Assembly (NCBI GenBank): GCA_001822815.1
Contig: MHSR01000013.1
Coordinates: forward strand, 18,808-82,807
Reading direction: 5' to 3'
From: Candidatus Terrybacteria bacterium RIFCSPHIGHO2_01_FULL_43_35
Lineage (GTDB): Bacteria; Patescibacteriota; Minisyncoccia; Terrybacterales; GWB1-40-14
Length of the DNA stretch: 64,000 nucleotides
The notes under the pieces were generated by a model. That model saw nothing but the letters and a program-made list of their open reading frames with translations. It had not been told where the DNA came from and searched no databases. A program made the translations under genes and the position numbers. This document shows, in pieces, positions 3,434 to 54,113 of the stretch. Numbering within the stretch: the first letter of the stretch is position 1; each line of letters starts with the position of its first letter.

Positions 3434-3529
3434 ACAACAACTCCTTTTTGTAAAAGTTCTAATTTATAGCTTAAATGAATGGAGTTTGGATGTCAAAAAT
3501 GAAAAATCCCGCTTTCGCAGGATTAATTT

Positions 3530-4411
3530 TTATCCAAGAAGCGTTTTTAGCACCCTATCCATTTCTTCTTTACTGCTGAAACTTATTGATATAGAGCCAC
3601 GTTTGCCGTTTTTTAATATGCGCACCGGAACGCCAAGTTTAGCTTTAATTTTATCTTCCAACTCCCCTCTTTGCGCACTGGCTTCACGTTGCGGGATCCT
3701 GCGGATACGCGATATCAACAGTCGCGCTGTTTCTTCTGCGCCGCGCACAGATAATTTTTCTTTCTGGATTTTTGAGAAAAGAAGTCTTTGAGCCTTTTCG
3801 GTTTTCAATGCCAGAATAGCCCGTGCGTGCCCCTCGCTTATGGCACCGCGAGAAATACCTTCCTGAATAAGCGAAGGCAGGCTCAATAAACGCAAGGTGT
3901 TGGTGACAAATTCGCGGCTTTTGCCCACGCGCGCGGCGATTTCTTCATGCGTAAGTTTAAAATCTCCAAGGAGCCGCTTAAAGGCCATGGCCCGTTCAAG
4001 CGCATTTAAATTTTCTCGTTGAACATTCTCTATTAAAGATAAGAGTAGGTTGTGATGTTCGCTTTTTGTCTCTCTGATGATAACCGGCACGCGCGGCAGA
4101 CCGGCTATTTTTGCTGCGCGCCAGCGCCTTTCACCGGCAATAATCTCATACACAACATTGGCGCCTCTTTCTGAAGTTTTTTCCTTTTTATGGACAACCA
4201 AAGGCAGTAAAACGCCGTGTTCTCTTATTGATGAAGCCAGTTCGTACAAGGCATCTTTATCAAATTCACGTCTGGGCTGATTTGGATTTGGCTGAATGTC
4301 CTTAATATCCAGCAAATAAAGAATCTCTTGGTTTTTACCAGATTTTTTAGATACCTTTTTGTTTTCTTTTCTGGCCGGAATCAGCGATTCAAGGCCTTTA
4401 CCTGATTTCAT
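3530..4411 (-). CDS. parB: Chromosome partitioning protein ParB/Spo0J
   Basis: ParB N-terminal box (IIAGERRWRAAKIAGL) plus an HTH region. Immediately downstream of parA. Confidence 0.85.
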   Translation of the reverse strand: MKSGKGLESLIPARKENKKVSKKSGKNQEILYLLDIKDIQPNPNQPRREFDKDALYELASSIREHGVLLPLVVHKKEKTSERGANVVYEIIAGERRWRAAKIAGLPRVPVIIRETKSEHHNLLLSLIENVQRENLNALERAMAFKRLLGDFKLTHEEIAARVGKSREFVTNTLRLLSLPSLIQEGISRGAISEGHARAILALKTEKAQRLLFSKIQKEKLSVRGAEETARLLISRIRRIPQREASAQRGELEDKIKAKLGVPVRILKNGKRGSISISFSSKEEMDRVLKTLLG

Positions 4412-5344: not shown

Positions 5345-5425
5345 GCCGAAGTGGCGGAATGGCAGACGCGCACGACTCAAAATCGTGTGAGGAAACTCAT
5401 GAGGGTTCGACTCCCTCCTTCGGCA
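5345..5425 (+). tRNA. tRNA-Leu (anticodon CAA), long variable arm, no encoded CCA
   Basis: Manual cloverleaf: acceptor GCCGAAG/CTTCGGC, D-arm, anticodon stem CACGA/TCGTG with loop CTCAAAA, long variable arm, T-arm GAGGG-TTCGACT-CCCTC. Confidence 0.85.
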
Positions 5426-31285: not shown

Positions 31286-31519
31286 GATTCCATAAAACCA
31301 TGGATTTATTGCTTGCGCAAACCTTTCGATTTACTCGGGTCTTCGACTCCCGCGGGACTGAGTCCTCGGGACGAACGTCTGAGAGTCTCAGACTCGTTGA
31401 GGTAAACAAAAACAGCTCTATCTAAAACAGAACTGCTTTTGCGCCAAATATCTTTAACAAAAAGTATTTGAGCGTGGAACGAATTTACTTATCTTTTCTT
31501 ATTTTCAAAGTTGGTGTTG

Positions 31520-31750
31520 GTGGTGGAACTAGCCTTGACCTGGCCTAGGCTGGCTCGCGAGACGAACGGGGTTGGGCTTTCAGCCTGGTTGGGAACAGCT
31601 CTCGTTGTATCCCGTACCTATTTCTACCACCCGCTTTTATCCCTCTAGGGGATCCGATCTTCCGGTATCAGACAAACCGTCGTATTAAGGAAATCGGATG
31701 AGCTGTCAATCCGAAACCTTTTTCCACCACCAACCAAAAACGAATTTTTA
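31520..31750. repeat. Copy 1 of a roughly 230-nt structured repeat in a GC-rich islet
   Basis: Shares ordered blocks with 32595-32830: GGGCTTTC(A/G)GCCTG, TACCACCC, GATCTT(C/G)CGGTATCAG(A/G)AAACCGTC, CCACCACCAACCAAAA. Confidence 0.6.
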
Positions 31751-31866: not shown

Positions 31867-32073
31867 TCACTTCTCCGCCTCGACCTTCGGATCTTCCAGC
31901 TCGACACCGAGCTCACGCGCCGCGCCTTCGGCCAGCTCGCGCTTCTCCGCGGGCGAGAGCTTGTCGATCTCGACCTTGAACCCGGCCATGTCCTGGCCAG
32001 AGAGCTTGCCGAAGTACTTCCAGAGCACCACGAGCTCGGTCGCCTTGGCGGCTTTGGCGCCAGAGGTGTCCAT
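31867..32073 (-). CDS. Small GC-rich protein (68 aa) with a strong Shine-Dalgarno, hypothetical
   Basis: About 62% GC with high GC3. GAAGGAG lies 8 nt upstream of the ATG. A hairpin overlaps the stop codon. Confidence 0.55.
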   Translation of the reverse strand: MDTSGAKAAKATELVVLWKYFGKLSGQDMAGFKVEIDKLSPAEKRELAEGAARELGVELEDPKVEAEK

Positions 32074-32274: not shown

Positions 32275-32544
32275 CTAGAGCAGTGCGAGGCGGACGCGTT
32301 CAAGTTTCGCGTGCCAAGCCCCTGAACCACCAGAGATGCGTGTCTCGCGCGTCGCAAGATCAGCCATCTCACGATCCCGCACCACAGCCACGCTGACGGT
32401 GGGCGCCTGATTGCTCGATCCGTGGTTGTAGGCGAAACCTTTCTGGCGTGCCACCTTGCGGATGTAGGTAAGCTTCCTGCTGCGCAGGAAGGAATTTGGG
32501 TCTGCCTTGACCTGGTTCTTCTTGGTGTGGCCTTCTGAGCTCAC
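32275..32544 (-). CDS. Small GC-rich basic protein (89 aa), GTG start with a strong Shine-Dalgarno, hypothetical
   Basis: TAAGGAGGAGAC-GTG start context. GC-rich stem terminator (AGCGAGGGGAA/TTCCCCTCGCT) downstream. Confidence 0.55.
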   Translation of the reverse strand: MSSEGHTKKNQVKADPNSFLRSRKLTYIRKVARQKGFAYNHGSSNQAPTVSVAVVRDREMADLATRETRISGGSGAWHAKLERVRLALL

Positions 32545-32594
32545 GTCTCCTCCTTACTTGGCTTTTGCCTGCCCGCTTCTTTGGTTTTAGTTAT

Positions 32595-32830
32595 TTAAAG
32601 GTGCGGATGGTGATGGGACTGGTATAGCGTAAGACGCCGAACGGCGTCACGTGCTTAACCGATGAATGGGACTGGGCTTTCGGCCTGCTCGTTTCAGAGT
32701 AGCTCTACTCCAGTAGCTTTCAGTACCACCCATATTTATCAACACGCTCTTTTTGCCTGAGGCATGGCCTGATCTTGCGGTATCAGGAAACCGTCATCTT
32801 CCCCATCACCACCAACCAAAACAAACATGT
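32595..32830. repeat. Copy 2 of the roughly 230-nt structured repeat
   Basis: See copy 1. Located immediately 5' (minus-strand sense) of the 89-aa gene. Confidence 0.6.
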
Positions 32831-33397: not shown

Positions 33398-33426
33398 TTG
33401 ACATTTATACCACATAATGATATAAT
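33398..33426 (+). promoter_or_regulatory. Consensus sigma70 promoter (TTGACA-17-TATAAT)
   Basis: TTGACA at 33398-33403, a 17-nt spacer, and TATAAT at 33421-33426, read directly. Confidence 0.7.
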
Positions 33427-33432
33427 TTTATT

Positions 33433-33797
33433 GTGCGGCATAAATGACCGCATGAAAACAAGCTCTCTTGAAGGAAGAGAGCAAGGAGTAGCGTTATGGG
33501 CAACGGGTAGGTAGCGTCTGAAGCAAAAGAATGTGGTATGCAAAACAAAGGCGCAAGGTAACTATTTACTAGACGCGCCCAAGATGAAAGCGGTACCAAT
33601 GGCTCTAGATCAAGCGCTGCCTTAACCCTCGGTTGTCAAACAGAGGATCGCAGAGCGATAAGAGCCCTAAAGACAAGCTTCAACGTTAACCCCTGGAAAA
33701 GGCCGCGCCTATCCAGACAAAAAACCCAAATCAAGCTCTCTTTGTTCTTTCTTCACCAAGGCCGCCACTCTACTCGAGAGGCGGCCTAAACTTTTAT
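33433..33797 (+). ncRNA. Candidate roughly 365-nt non-coding RNA of unknown class
   Basis: Bounded by the consensus promoter and an intrinsic terminator (GGCCGCC-13-GGCGGCC followed by TAAACTTTTAT, 33757-33797). No ORF longer than 20 codons. Internal hairpins are present, e.g. CTCTCTTgaaggAAGAGAG. Confidence 0.5.
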
Positions 33798-33851
33798 ACA
33801 AAAACTGCTTTTTATGCAGAGTTTAAAAGACGGAGCACTGCTTTCTGTTAT

Positions 33852-37552: not shown

Positions 37553-37935
37553 GGGGATGCCGGGCTTCGAAAAGGAAAAGTGTAGCGCGCGCAGGACGAG
37601 GCCGATCAACAACCTCGAAAAAAGTTGATCACTTACAAGTGCAAACTTGTTCGCAAAAGTGCAGAACGCTTTCCGCGTTCCAGCATTTGCTCTTGCTTAA
37701 ATTAGCTTGAGCCATCCGGCCCTGATGCTCGATAAGGAAACGCCGGGTGCCATACATCGAGCTTGACTAGCATAAGGACCTCGCTTGCGCTACGCGACTC
37801 AAACAGGGGTAGGAATATCTGAAATTCTGCCGTTCTTTGACCGGATATTCTGACAAAACATTACAGAATGGCTAATCCTGTAGAAGCGTGCCGCATAATT
37901 TTTCTTTGACGTGGGTTCAACTCCCACCATCTCCA
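37553..37935 (+). ncRNA. ssrA: tmRNA (SsrA)
   Basis: 5' GGGGATGCCGGGCTTCGA... pairs with 3' ...GACGTGGGTTCAACTCCCACCATCTCCA (tRNA-like domain). An internal tag frame at 37640-37699 ends ...AFALA-TAA. Located immediately after smpB. Confidence 0.8.
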
Positions 37936-38026
37936 CAAACCATGCCGACAATTTATAAATAGTTTTAACTATCTGCAAAAGTTTAATTATTATCAGCGCC
38001 GTCCGCAGTTTCAACGAGGACCGCGC

Positions 38027-45599: not shown

Positions 45600-46913
45600 T
45601 CAGAATAATTTGTCCTGGACAGCACTTCCTTGATTGCCGCTCAAAAAAATCTTACGTTCATCTTCAGAAAAAATCTCTACTTTACCGAACTCGCCGTCAT
45701 ATCCCGGTTCAATATGCAATTTGCCTTCGCGTATTCTTTTCAATCCCTCCCCTATTATAGGCAAGCTCTCCTGTGCCACTTCTGTAGTATCGGTATTAAG
45801 CAGAATTTCAAACTCATTGCCAAAAGATTTCAATAATTTTTCATACAGTTCGCTTACTTTTTTTGAAGCCGTGCCAACGCCAAAACATGAGGCTATTATT
45901 TCTTCAAGCGGCACAAATGACTTGAATTCTGGCGCGCCTGCCGGCTTGGCACCATCTTCCCTATTTGATAGATCGTTAACCCTAGACACCACCCCGACCG
46001 TAACTCTACGGCCGCAAACACTGCATATACCGCTATGTTCTTTGGTCTCTTTGGGATGCCATGATACTTTACAAAGCCTATGCCCGTCGTAATGATATTT
46101 TCCTTCTTGAGGGAAAAACTCTATTGTTCCGACTAACTTTGTTTTATTTCCTTCTCGCAAAGCGGCTTTTGAGGGCGCGCCATTTTTTATTGCTTCATGC
46201 ATGGCGGCGTACCCCATTTCGCCCTCAAAAATATTGGCTTCGCGGCCGATTTTTCGGCCGGAATGGCTATCGGAGTTTGAAATCAAGGTCACGGAATCAA
46301 GTTTAGAAACGCGCCAGTTCATCAACGGGTCGGAGGACAGACCGGTTTCTATGGCATATATTTTGGGCGTCATTTCATCAAAACATTCTTCTAGGGAATC
46401 AAAGCCTGACATGGAGCCAAAAACTGAAAACCAAGGCGTCCAAGCGTGCGCCGGAATGACCATACATTGATCGGAAACGGAAAAAACTATTTTAGCCAGC
46501 TCCTTAACATCCAAACCCAAAATTGGCCGGCCATCGGAATGAAGATTGCCCCGCCACCCTAATTGCTTATTTATTCCCTCTGCCGCTTCAAACGAAGGAG
46601 CAAAAATAAGGGTGTGGATTTTTCTGACTTTTGCGTTTTTGGAATAAATACTGGATACCTCAACTGTAAGCAAAAAACGTGTGGCGGTTTTTATATCTGC
46701 TGTGTTTTTTAAAACAAACAACCCATCTTCAGGCGCTGGCTCAAGCTGCTGTTTTAACTCTGAAATCCACTCTGGATGCGTAAAATCCCCCGTGCCCATA
46801 ACGGCAATCCCCTTTTTGACAGCCCATTTATCCAACTCGGCAATATTCATATCCTTGGAAACGGCGCGCGAGTAGTGGGAATGTATATGAAAATCAGCTA
46901 TAAATTTAGACAT
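45600..46913 (-). CDS. PHP-domain protein with CxxC zinc finger, endonuclease Q-like (TIGR00375-like)
   Basis: N-terminal DFHIHSHYS PHP motif, later GICSVCGRRVTVG zinc-finger-like motif. About 437 aa, as for EndoQ homologues. Confidence 0.5.
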   Translation of the reverse strand: MSKFIADFHIHSHYSRAVSKDMNIAELDKWAVKKGIAVMGTGDFTHPEWISELKQQLEPAPEDGLFVLKNTADIKTATRFLLTVEVSSIYSKNAKVRKIHTLIFAPSFEAAEGINKQLGWRGNLHSDGRPILGLDVKELAKIVFSVSDQCMVIPAHAWTPWFSVFGSMSGFDSLEECFDEMTPKIYAIETGLSSDPLMNWRVSKLDSVTLISNSDSHSGRKIGREANIFEGEMGYAAMHEAIKNGAPSKAALREGNKTKLVGTIEFFPQEGKYHYDGHRLCKVSWHPKETKEHSGICSVCGRRVTVGVVSRVNDLSNREDGAKPAGAPEFKSFVPLEEIIASCFGVGTASKKVSELYEKLLKSFGNEFEILLNTDTTEVAQESLPIIGEGLKRIREGKLHIEPGYDGEFGKVEIFSEDERKIFLSGNQGSAVQDKLF

Positions 46914-47050
46914 AATCTGCAGAATTATCTTTTATAAGCGTATCGCAACGTGTCAACGCATGCAAATAATATTGACGTAATAAATTTTTTGTGCCATGAT
47001 ATAAATAATGCGTTGCTTGATGTACGGACAACGCAAAAAGGAGGCAGAGG

Positions 47051-47338
47051 ATGCGAGAAGACCGGAAGATTAGCGAGCAAGAGGCTGATCGCCTTATCGC
47101 TGAAGGAGCAGGCACGATGTTTGATGTGCGTGATCCGGATGCGCAGATACCACCCTCCTACTTCGAGCCGAAAAACGGCAACCCGCACATCGTCGTCATA
47201 GCTGACGATACCTACTATGTGCGGAGCATCGAGGATCTAGAAAGCGGTCCCGATGGGGTCATTGTTCGCTTTCTAGATGAAAGCGACGGCAGGCCCCTGC
47301 CTTCGGCAGATGAAGTGTTCAAGTTTAGACAGCTGTAA
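47051..47338 (+). CDS. Small acidic protein (95 aa) with a perfect Shine-Dalgarno, hypothetical
   Basis: AAAGGAGGCAGAGG-ATG start context. Moderately GC-rich. Confidence 0.5.
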   Translation: MREDRKISEQEADRLIAEGAGTMFDVRDPDAQIPPSYFEPKNGNPHIVVIADDTYYVRSIEDLESGPDGVIVRFLDESDGRPLPSADEVFKFRQL

Positions 47339-47585
47339 TCAAACAGCAGTTTAAACCAACAACGGCTCGATCTTCGATCGGGCTGTTTTTCTACGTACTA
47401 ACATTACGATATACTATTGCCAAATTAGTTAATATATAGCTCTTCGCAGCAATACTATTTGGCGGGCGGCCTTGTGAGCAACATGAGGGCCAAGGACCCT
47501 TTGTCGGTACGACTTTATAAATGGAAAGGTCCCCTACAGTTGCGAACAAGGGCGCGCGCCAATAACTTAATACGACCCCGCTGTA

Positions 47586-47614
47586 TTGACAATACAAAAA
47601 TTATGTGCTAATAT
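47586..47614 (+). promoter_or_regulatory. Near-consensus sigma70 promoter (TTGACA-17-TAATAT)
   Basis: TTGACA at 47586-47591, a 17-nt spacer, and TAATAT at 47609-47614, read directly. Confidence 0.65.
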
Positions 47615-47620
47615 ATACAC

Positions 47621-48030
47621 ACTGAAGCTGATCTCCCCCTATACCATGAAGGTCAAGGGAGCTCTCAGCCAAACCGAACCTTGAGCCGGGCTGAAAGGCT
47701 TTACGGCTCAAAGCTAAGGCAGGAATAGGTGGCGCTGACAATAAAACAAGGATGTGTACATACTCCTTGCTTTACCCAGCACCACCGGGGTCAATGTTAC
47801 CGGCATGCGGAACATCCTGTCCGGGGGTCCGAGCCATGATCAGCTTGGATTGCAACCAGGAAAAGACCTCCAAAAAGCTCTTTCGTAACCGCCCCACGTT
47901 CTCTGACGCCTGGTCCGGGCTACTGGACCTTCTGTTTACTAACTGTCAGGGGCGGCAAATAAGGTGCGGGGAGGATCCATTCGGATCCTCCCCAAACCCC
48001 GACATCGTTTGTCGGGGTCGTTATTTTTTA
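47621..48030 (+). ncRNA. Candidate roughly 410-nt non-coding RNA of unknown class
   Basis: Strong promoter upstream. Two 3' hairpins (GGGGAGGATCC-attc-GGATCCTCCCC, then CCCCGACA-tcgttt-GTCGGGG followed by a T-run). The only overlapping ORF (93 aa) is low-complexity and runs through the terminator hairpins. No same-strand gene lies downstream. Confidence 0.5.
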
Positions 48031-48038
48031 TAGAAACA

Positions 48039-49499
48039 CTATGACGGTTCACCGAACCGTTTATCTTTTAATCCATGACTGGCCAGAATTCCAAGCAACA
48101 ACCAAAACAGTAAACGTCCTTGCTGCAAAGTCCAGGAGAAATGGTCAAAAAAACCGACAAATAAAATTAGCCCCAAAGAAATCCCGGCGGCTAAAACAAA
48201 ATTGTTGTTTTGCCAAGATAAATTCTTAATCTTTGAGGCTGTGCGATAAAAAACAGAAAGCACAAGACATATAAATATAAAAAGAGATATTAAACCGTTC
48301 TCCGCGGCTATTAAAAGATAGATATTGTGCGCCGGCTGGTAAACCCAGTCCTTTAATTTAAATCTAGGGGTGGGTTGACCGATATTTTCAACAAAGTCTC
48401 CTGGCCCAACCCCAACAAGCGGTTTGGCTTCAATCAATTCAATGGCGGTTTGATTATAAAAAAGCCTGAAGCCAACGGCCTGCTCTTCTCTCGCCACGGA
48501 AACTCTGGGCACAATAAAAGGAAAAAGGGCCAATAATACCAATACAGCTGCAACCGCATTAACAGATATGGTGAAAATAATCATACGCAAAACATCAGAA
48601 CGCGGTCTTATAGTTATTTTAGCCTTTTCCACTATGCCGGCGTGAAAATATTTTGCGATAAGGAACCCAAAAAAGATGGTTTCTCCAGCCAGTAATCCGA
48701 CCCATACAGCTCGGGAACCGCTAAGCGCTAAAGCAAAAAAAGATAGCAGCAGAAAAGAGCCAAATATTATTTTAATTAAAATTGCTCTTTTATTATCCCG
48801 ATTGTCTTTCAAGTAATTTAACAAAAGGGCGTTAATAATGAGAACGGCTACGGCCAAATATGCCGCCAAAACGTTGGGGTGAGGCGTTGTGCCATAAACA
48901 CGTATTACTGTCGCTCCCGCAACGTGCATTTTTGCAACTCCGTTTATCAACATACCCAATGGCGATTCGCCAAGCAACCGCAAGCCTAGATCACTTTGGA
49001 ATTTGAACTGTAAAAGAGCTATTAAAGATTGCGCGATCGCTCCAAGACCCATGCCCACTGCAAGAACCTTAAATAAGACATCGGGCTTAAGAAATCGCGG
49101 GATAAAAAATAGAATAAACAATTCAAGAAATTTAATAAAGGTCCAGGCGGCAATGTGCTTATTGGCCGCAAAAGCTAAAGAGGTAACGATAGTTATCAAA
49201 AATCCCAACAGAAATATTTCAACAATTACTTCTGAAAGACTCTTTTTGAATTCCTGGGTTACCTCTGCAGGATAAAATGATTGTCTCGCGATGATCAGAA
49301 AAGCGACCGCCGCAAGCAATATATCCGTTCCCCACAACCAGGCGCTTGAATATTCGTTGCCTTCAAGGCCGTGACCTAAATCGGCAAGAAAAATCCGCGT
49401 TTGAAAAGGTATGGCTAAAATAAAAAACGTAAACGCGATGGCCAAAAGGCTATCGTATTTTTTTTGTTTGCCGATAATTTTAGTTGTGCGGTCTGCCAT
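48039..49499 (-). CDS. O-antigen ligase/polymerase-like (Wzy/WaaL family) membrane protein
   Basis: About 12 TM helices with a large periplasmic loop. Family assigned by topology only. Confidence 0.45.
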   Translation of the reverse strand: MADRTTKIIGKQKKYDSLLAIAFTFFILAIPFQTRIFLADLGHGLEGNEYSSAWLWGTDILLAAVAFLIIARQSFYPAEVTQEFKKSLSEVIVEIFLLGFLITIVTSLAFAANKHIAAWTFIKFLELFILFFIPRFLKPDVLFKVLAVGMGLGAIAQSLIALLQFKFQSDLGLRLLGESPLGMLINGVAKMHVAGATVIRVYGTTPHPNVLAAYLAVAVLIINALLLNYLKDNRDNKRAILIKIIFGSFLLLSFFALALSGSRAVWVGLLAGETIFFGFLIAKYFHAGIVEKAKITIRPRSDVLRMIIFTISVNAVAAVLVLLALFPFIVPRVSVAREEQAVGFRLFYNQTAIELIEAKPLVGVGPGDFVENIGQPTPRFKLKDWVYQPAHNIYLLIAAENGLISLFIFICLVLSVFYRTASKIKNLSWQNNNFVLAAGISLGLILFVGFFDHFSWTLQQGRLLFWLLLGILASHGLKDKRFGEPS

Positions 49500-54040: not shown

Positions 54041-54113
54041 TGTCCTCGAGAGGAATCGAACCCCCAGTCTCCTCCTCCGGAGGGAGGCGTTTTATCCATT
54101 AAACTACGAGGAC
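54041..54113 (-). tRNA. tRNA-Arg (anticodon CCG), no encoded CCA
   Basis: Manual cloverleaf on the minus strand: acceptor GTCCTCG/CGAGGAC, D-stem GTTT/AAAC, anticodon stem CCTCC/GGAGG with loop CTCCGGA, T-loop TTCGATT. Confidence 0.8.

Follow-up and report, generated by a model that had tools for sequence, protein, structure and literature searches.

Background

The raiA, OLE, ROOL, GOLLD and HEARO RNAs of bacteria are encoded by stand-alone genes and have multi-domain folds of > 200 nucleotides (nt) supported by covariation. In large orphan RNAs of this kind the conserved nucleotides lie in junctions and internal loops, the periphery is variable and genomic context is uninformative about function. 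Time and again, bacterial RNAs of this size and intricacy of fold have proved to be ribozymes, cores of ribonucleoproteins (RNPs) or ligand sensors, and descriptions exist of homo-oligomeric assemblies formed by other large bacterial RNAs. Here we describe a candidate for a new RNA family on the plus strand of a 64,000-nt stretch of DNA from Candidatus Terrybacteria bacterium RIFCSPHIGHO2_01_FULL_43_35 (contig MHSR01000013.1, positions 18,808 to 82,807; the whole stretch is referred to as the window). An earlier examination of the letters and their open reading frames (ORFs), hereafter the sequence-only reading, had proposed an orphan, stand-alone non-coding RNA (ncRNA) of about 410 nt at this place.

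The new RNA shares with raiA, OLE, ROOL, GOLLD and HEARO the stand-alone gene, the large, covarying multi-domain fold, the conserved junctions and internal loops with a variable periphery and the lack of clues to function from genomic context. It is smaller than OLE, ROOL and GOLLD, it occurs in other taxa and has so far a very narrow range (one clade of Parcubacteria) and, unlike OLE and HEARO, it has no associated protein gene. The bacteria belonging to the candidate phyla radiation (CPR, Patescibacteria) have very small genomes and are almost all uncultured, and their ncRNAs have barely been charted.

Results and discussion

A conserved RNA gene carrying a promoter and a terminator

At the level of sequence, comparison of four lineages establishes a conserved, structured, non-coding RNA gene that looks independently transcribed. 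Our interpretation, held with a probability of about 0.8, is that it belongs to a new family of structured ncRNA, encoded by an independent gene, vertically inherited in one Terrybacteria-related clade of Parcubacteria, trans-acting and untranslated. The family is not in Rfam 15; its general kind, the orphan structured bacterial ncRNA, is already known. Sequence and structure conserved in four lineages, together with a promoter and a terminator of its own, bear out the orphan, stand-alone ncRNA proposed earlier.

Genome and metagenome contigs were scanned for homologues with the neighbouring endonuclease Q gene as anchor. Among the 160 loci obtained in this way, the RNA was present only in the L008 group. 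Twelve look-ups of contigs encoding close homologues of endonuclease Q added loci L169/L170 and L173, so that the homologues found by nhmmer are those of L008/L088/L089/L090 (Parcubacteria GW2011_GWB1_40_14), L169/L170 and L173. A covariance-model search of 65 loci gave no additional homologues. The window copy recurs identically on seven other contigs (one truncated, with a single mismatch), and the RNA sample comprised five distinct sequences from four lineages. The gene and its 3' hairpins are laid out as follows.

47586-47614, plus strand: promoter, sigma-70-type (TTGACA at 47586-47591, 17-nt spacer, TAATAT at 47609-47614)
47621-48029, plus strand: predicted transcript of about 405 nt, its 5' end placed from the spacing after the -10 element and its 3' end from the U-run
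47968-47993, no strand assigned: 11-bp GC stem with an AUUC tetraloop (GGGGAGGATCC-ATTC-GGATCCTCCCC), inside the RNA transcript
47997-48029, plus strand: intrinsic terminator of the RNA (stem 47997-48004/48010-48017, then UCGUUAUUUUUU)

The promoter was already picked out in the sequence-only reading, and three other lineages have kept it. It is the best promoter-like site in 46800-48300, with 10 of 12 consensus matches, and a TG sits one base upstream of its -10 element. In all four lineages a perfect TTGACA is followed by a 17-nt spacer and by a -10 element located 12-13 nt before the first helix of the RNA, H1; the -10 elements of the homologues are TATACT (L008), TATTAT (L169) and TATGAT (L173). 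This near-consensus promoter would drive transcription on the plus strand from 47621, and the intrinsic terminator would end it at about 48029. The distance from promoter to terminator U-run gives a predicted length close to the 410 nt first suggested, while the homologous RNAs are shorter (about 340-350 nt). The body had been called GC-rich; its GC content does exceed that of the flanks, though only moderately (0.52-0.58 versus 0.35-0.45). The minimum-free-energy fold of the plus-strand RNA has z = -6.55 relative to dinucleotide shuffles.

The two consecutive 3' hairpins of the sequence-only reading are both present, but only the second is shared with a homologue. That hairpin (47997-48017) has a stem of 8-9 bp, CCCCGACA-TCGTT-TGTCGGGG, followed by CGTTATTTTTT, and was flagged by the scan as a plus-strand terminator; the T-run had been recognized correctly, the stem counted as 7 bp. 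It is homologous to the L008 terminator (CCUCGACA-UA-UGUUGGGG-UUUUAUUUUUU). L169 and L173 have a different terminator hairpin in the same place, and a terminator hairpin with a U-run occurs in all four lineages. The 11-bp hairpin, without a counterpart in L008, L169 or L173, is found in the window only. On the minus strand CACCTTATTT comes after it, and the scan flagged a terminator-like site there. The 11-bp hairpin is therefore probably the terminator of the convergent Wzy_C gene and not part of a tandem terminator of the RNA.

Compensatory changes maintain the fold

The conserved core of about 250 nt (47627-47870) consists of H1, H2, a branched H3 and a three-way junction formed by H4, H5 and H6. 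It is followed by a linker and a further helix:

47627-47669, plus strand: helix H1 (outer 47627-47631/47665-47669, inner 47633-47637/47657-47661)
47674-47719, plus strand: helix H2 (CC/GG base 47674-47675/47718-47719; stem 47679-47683/47709-47713 and further in)
47721-47726, plus strand: conserved single strand AGGAAU, AGGAAC in other lineages
47728-47786, plus strand: domain H3 (outer 47728-47732/47782-47786; apical H3c 47747-47751/47765-47769)
47787-47870, plus strand: three-way-junction domain, the most conserved part, with helices H4 (47787-47792/47865-47870), H5 (47796-47802/47808-47813), H6a (47815-47819/47857-47861) and H6b (47827-47834/47843-47850)
47875-47884, plus strand: C/U-rich linker, AAGCUCUUUC in the window, AAGUUCUUUC in L008 and AAAGCUCUUU in L169 and L173
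47889-47955, plus strand: helix H7, whose CCGC...GCGG base is conserved; its length is 67 nt in the window, far less in the homologues

The four lineages were compared by eye and then by script, with the variable hairpins aligned by hand. Twelve helices (H1a, H1b, H2 outer, H2 middle, H3 outer, H3c, H4, H5, H6a, H6b, H7 and the terminator) could be placed in the same order in every sequence. Covariation among homologues had been put forward earlier as a way to examine the structure. With the three other lineages, double changes that preserve pairing affect 35 of 66 aligned pairs and single-sided changes another 7, the remaining 24 being invariant; non-canonical cells are rare (6 of 323), with pairing kept in 98%. 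Examples of compensatory change are GCUGA/UCAGC versus GUCGG/CCGAC in H1a, GGGGUC/GACCUC versus GAGGCU/AGCCUU in H4 and GUUCCG/CGGAAC versus CCCUGC/GCAGGG in H5.

Since this helix table rests on our own alignment, the three other lineages alone were used to build a covariance model (R1), with the window left out; the model spans H3 to H4 (176 positions, 40 pairs). Run with filters off, R1 found 47727-47872 (24.1 bits, E = 2.2e-5) as its sole significant match in the window, the next-best match having E = 0.1. In the alignment derived from R1, 98.9% of cells are paired and nine pairs are changed on both sides, a number reached by 0 of 500 shuffles; controls with slid partners gave ≤ 3 double-changed pairs and 37-53% pairing. 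Within domain H3, this alignment matches AGGUGG...CCACC to AGGUUC...GAACC. RNAalifold independently recovers the same helices. On these alignments, compensatory changes preserve ten or more helices.

The pairing also identifies the strand. G-U pairs occur in eleven pair columns and would be A-C mismatches on the opposite strand, so the plus strand is the functional one, in agreement with the promoter and the terminator.

Distribution of conserved and variable positions

Conservation of sequence concentrates in junctions and internal loops. Near the 5' side the conserved strings are AAG before H1, an A-rich J1/2 and GGCAGG..AGGAAY after H2. Around H6 they are UCCUGYCCGGGG and GAAACCAGGRAAAAG, and the linker has the consensus AAGYUCUUU. 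Within the three-way-junction domain the conserved strings are UCCUGUCCGGGG (47815-47826) and AACCAGGAAAAG (47854-47865); compensatory changes there fall mostly in H4, H5 and H6b, and H6a and the internal loops are nearly invariant. A conserved GGAUG at 47750-47754 belongs to the H3c loop. Free variation is found in the sequence and length of hairpin tips, in the 3' tail (C/U linker and H7) and in the terminator.

In H1, 6 of 11 pairs are double-changed and the minimum-free-energy fold agrees with the helix; its 19-nt loop is specific to the window. The CC/GG base of H2 is invariant and its stem is variable, with a GAAA loop in the window: the stem sequence is wholly different in each lineage (CCUUGAGCCG, CCAGUGG, CCUCGC), and the strands are still complementary. 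Only the window copy has the longer H7, the long H1 loop and the extra 11-bp hairpin, and it is without the H3a/H3i side branch of other lineages. The linker at 47875-47884 is presumably single-stranded. The hexamer in the internal loop of H6 is nearly invariant and self-complementary (CCCGGG in three lineages); the window version, UCCGGG (47820-47825), can still pair with itself through G-U.

A perfect 9-nt complementarity links the 5' end of the window RNA (47625-47633, AAGCUGAUC) to the H6b loop (47838-47846, GAUCAGCUU). The corresponding long-range 9-bp helix, which occurs in the minus-strand fold, was rejected as part of the conserved structure: it is not conserved in homologues and conflicts with the covarying H1. 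The match is probably due to chance, or it may be a tertiary pairing specific to the window.

Coding potential

One frame runs through the 3' half of the RNA:

47752-48033, plus strand: 93-amino-acid (aa) ORF with an ATG start, reading through both 3' hairpins

The ATG-initiated frame, together with long stop-free stretches in every homologue, is what could suggest that the locus encodes this Cys/Pro/Gly-rich protein or some other small protein. There is almost no chance that it does. The 93-aa ORF has no tblastn similarity in the homologous RNAs, and a set of 5.8 billion predicted proteins contains no homologue of it, nor any of L173's longest sense ORF (138 aa). Indels between lineages are not multiples of three and shift the frame, and the helix table shows substitutions that keep base pairs and not codons. 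The 93-aa ORF was not called as a gene on any contig examined, and it crosses two strong hairpins. The sequence-only reading had seen no plausible ORF here and named conservation of the 93-aa frame under purifying selection as one observation that would speak against an RNA; the searches of homologous RNAs and of proteins, both empty, uphold its judgement.

A search of the protein database for spurious ORF calls within the homologous RNAs gave none. In L169, an 81-aa public gene call (3439-3684, plus strand) without a Pfam match overlaps the 3' half of the RNA homologue in antisense orientation and is in all likelihood a false call within an ncRNA gene. Annotating the region as an ncRNA gene would keep spurious ORFs inside it from being called.

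Comparison with known RNA families

Rfam 15 at gathering thresholds identified, in the whole 64-kb window, only tmRNA (37553-37938, 122 bits) and tRNAs (5345-5425 and 54041-54113). When only the short region was scanned at E ≤ 10, in the copies of the window, L169 and L008, nothing but chance matches on the terminator hairpins appeared, and the models for RNase P, 6S, SRP, riboswitch, OLE, ROOL, GOLLD, raiA and HEARO RNAs had no match in any of the three; in these permissive scans, scores below about 12 bits would not be listed. The comparison with Rfam that the sequence-only reading had suggested, especially with RNase P, 6S and large ornate RNAs, accordingly turned up no family.

Might this be a highly diverged housekeeping RNA missed by Rfam thresholds? 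RNase P RNA would be the most plausible, followed by 6S or SRP RNA. A size of 340-410 nt, a strong promoter, a stand-alone gene and a CPR host are all as expected for RNase P RNA of type A (RF00010), and no RNase P RNA was found elsewhere in the window, which is itself only part of the genome. RNase P RNA was examined explicitly because diverged CPR forms escape Rfam thresholds: 10 of 35 circularised CPR genomes were without RNase P RNA until the RF00010 thresholds were lowered, and many of the newly detected CPR RNAs needed extensive manual refolding (Lui et al. 2021, PMC8172020). The fold described here nevertheless differs from that of RNase P RNA, which has a nested, pseudoknotted P1/P2/P4 core. 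All conserved helices of the new RNA are local, making it a string of local domains, and no conserved duplex between the 5' end and the tail resembles a closing helix P1 (-5 kcal/mol in L169/L173, other registers in the window and L008). In RNase P RNA the regions CR-I (GAGGAAAGUCC...) and CR-V (ACAGAAnnCGGCUUA), given here as in Escherichia coli M1 RNA, pair as helix P4. Their best matches in the four lineages have 5-6 mismatches in 15, and 30-100% of shuffled sequences do as well. As a further difference, the gene of the new RNA is missing at the corresponding locus of L091, to which L008 is most closely related, and is dispensable at that position. With no model match, no CR-I/CR-V, no P4 pseudoknot and ends that lack P1 closure, RNase P RNA was rejected, and we regard a housekeeping identity of any of these kinds as highly unlikely.

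6S RNA (RF00013) shares with the new RNA a terminator of its own, a strong promoter and, as is likely for the new RNA, an abundant, housekeeping-style character. At about 180 nt, 6S RNA is an extended hairpin interrupted by a central bubble, in contrast to the local branched domains and unpaired ends found here. A multi-branched fold with at least ten local helices, no terminal closure and no model match led to its rejection. A CsrA-type sponge was rejected as well, there being 5-7 GGA motifs per copy (counted by eye) against about five expected by chance.

Neighbouring genes

The RNA is constant in its placement between the Wzy_C and endonuclease Q genes and is transcribed away from endonuclease Q.

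45600-46913, minus strand: gene of the endonuclease Q / TIGR00375 / MJ0043_C family, 437 aa, flanking the islet
47051-47338: 95-aa gene whose ATG is preceded by AAAGGAGG as Shine-Dalgarno sequence; a terminator of its own follows at about 47366-47392
48039-49499, minus strand: Wzy_C gene (O-antigen-ligase-like membrane protein), downstream of and convergent with the RNA

Control of a neighbouring gene in cis, by a leader, a riboswitch or an antisense RNA, would need an arrangement that most of the lineages do not have. In three of the four lineages (the window, L169 and L173) the RNA faces a convergent downstream gene that it does not overlap, a gene order opposed to such a role; the orientation of Wzy_C had already led the sequence-only reading to discount a leader or riboswitch. 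L008 alone has a same-strand gene (151 aa) after the RNA, which would suit a cis element, but it is set apart by the strong terminator and by a separate TTGACA-17-TATAAT promoter. No riboswitch family was matched in the Rfam scans at E ≤ 10. Cis regulation is extremely improbable.

A pairing of small protein and large RNA, as seen by the sequence-only reading here and in the 31-34 kb islet, does not hold up across lineages, although the 95-aa gene with its perfect Shine-Dalgarno sequence is indeed there. The 95-aa gene is confined to the window lineage, where it lies upstream of the RNA. The 151-aa gene of L008 is on the other, downstream side and its product is unrelated to the 95-aa protein (BLASTP E = 3.9); L169 and L173 have no credible small gene beside the RNA. 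Neither small protein has a Pfam or PHROGs match.

The 195 nt that separate the terminator of the 95-aa gene from the promoter of the RNA (47391-47585) fold as a long imperfect hairpin (GGCGGGCGGCCUUGU...ACAAGGGCGCGCGCC, z = -3.1), which is found in the window lineage only. As to the 437-aa protein, its closest named relatives are from Parcubacteria (GW2011_GWB1_40_14, 73% identity; Candidatus Terrybacteria, 60-65%). Close homologues are named 'DNA helicase UvrD' in several public records, which looks like a propagated mis-annotation.

Inheritance of the RNA

In a neighbour-joining tree of endonuclease Q, the RNA-bearing window, L008, L169 and L173 form one clade. L091 falls within this clade as sister of L008 (85% identity). 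The RNA is distributed in step with the endonuclease Q tree, in a single clade and with one loss, which argues for vertical descent; a single gain followed by vertical descent with one loss or relocation fits the data.

What lies between Wzy_C and endonuclease Q varies between relatives. The interval contains the RNA and the 95-aa gene in the window, the RNA and the 151-aa gene in L008 and the RNA alone in L169 and L173. Without the RNA, it is empty in L091, L176 and L179, has HAD and DUF218 genes in L168 and L171 and has other small ORFs in L174 and L180. This variability, and the GC content of the islet above that of its flanks, might be expected if the RNA belonged to an accessory or mobile module at a hotspot of variation (guide or omega-like, antitoxin or retron-like) together with an adjacent small protein. 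An exact 10-nt direct repeat (TTATCTTTTA) at 46925-46934 and 48061-48070, which brackets the 95-aa gene and the RNA, points the same way; it is probably a chance occurrence, since homologous loci are without equivalent flanking repeats. There are no direct repeats inside the RNA body either. In no lineage does a gene for a reverse transcriptase, TnpB, IscB, Cas protein, transposase or toxin adjoin the RNA, and this lack of an effector gene is our ground for setting a mobile or defence RNA module aside. The two small neighbour proteins are mutually unrelated and two lineages have none. A pattern scan of viral contigs and a blastn search of phage records yielded nothing similar to the RNA. Given also the agreement with the endonuclease Q tree, we consider a mobile module decidedly unlikely.

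In one related lineage (L171 and L172, 5364-6170), a gene for an rve-family integrase lies directly downstream of endonuclease Q, a hint that the neighbourhood can receive mobile DNA.

Possible modes of action

We suggest that the new RNA acts in trans as a folded molecule, untranslated and without cis control of a neighbouring gene. A protein partner or a small ligand would be bound at the conserved junctions and internal loops, so that the RNA would be an RNP scaffold or a regulatory RNA, and the variable helices may serve only as struts. As a variant of this mechanism, the C/U-rich linker could pair with the ribosome-binding sites of mRNAs.

That variant can be developed into a trans-acting, base-pairing small RNA (sRNA), in which AAGCUCUUUC (47875-47884) would seed on purine-rich ribosome-binding sites and the 5' domain would stabilise the molecule or act as a sensor. 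Many Gram-positive sRNAs have a structured body, an open linker and a terminator hairpin. The new RNA is similarly laid out: it has its own promoter and intrinsic terminator, and each of the four lineages has a C/U-rich stretch before the 3' hairpins, placed after the structured core and before H7. It is, however, two to four times longer than sRNAs of this type, and a 250-nt covarying core far exceeds what a seed-type sRNA needs. The junction nucleotides of the core are better conserved than the linker, both in sequence and in position, and no target was identified. An sRNA of this sort is unlikely and would in any case be a sub-case of the trans-acting structured RNA proposed here, not a true alternative to it.

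A more ambitious possibility, which we hold to be doubtful, is that the RNA is the founding member of a CPR-specific class of large structured RNAs with a function of its own, as ribozyme, ligand sensor or self-assembling RNA. The self-complementary hexamer of H6 could, for example, mediate homodimerisation.

Several points weigh against the reading of the locus as a new, vertically inherited, trans-acting RNA family. In L091 only about 35 nt, and no RNA, separate the Wzy_C gene from that of endonuclease Q, so either the RNA can be dispensed with or the L091 genome encodes it in another place. The window copy stands apart from the rest: its 3' core is about 52% identical to the others (L008 versus L169/L173, 82-83%), it lacks one sub-branch and it scores only 24 bits, and this divergent member is nevertheless placed nearer to L008 by the endonuclease Q tree. 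With five distinct sequences from only four lineages, the covariation statistics are low-powered. The structure was derived from the same sequences that were used to test it, and the helix table relies on our own alignment of the variable hairpins. Both ends of the window transcript are predicted from sequence features, and the proposed mode of action, for which no specific partner or target was found, is a guess from the pattern of conservation.

A gene of about 400 nt that keeps at least ten helices and a perfect -35 element in every lineage is paid for by selection in a small genome. The family is a concrete target for biochemistry because large folded bacterial RNAs have so often proved to be ribozymes, RNP cores or ligand sensors, and the present covariance model can seed a wider search. 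A wide distribution in the CPR or a biochemical activity, if true, would raise its interest.

Other RNA candidates in the window

At 33400-33800, where the sequence-only reading had its other candidate for an orphan RNA, a TTGACA-17-TATAAT sequence is followed by about 380 nt without an ORF and by a GC hairpin at the end (33762-33788); this region has no Rfam match. Paralogy with the new RNA, suggested by the shared strings CCUGGAAAAGGCC and GUUCUUUCUUCA, was rejected, as the Smith-Waterman score is within the range of shuffles and R1 finds nothing there.

Two homologous structured elements of about 225 nt, with 76% column identity and no Rfam match at E ≤ 5, are present at 31500-31750 and 32590-32830. 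They are interleaved with minus-strand ORFs of 68 aa (31867-32073) and 89 aa (32275-32544). Each element is closed by GGUG(U/C)(U/G)G(G/A)UGGUG...CACCACCAACC, and the two have GGGCUUUC(A/G)GCCUG in common.

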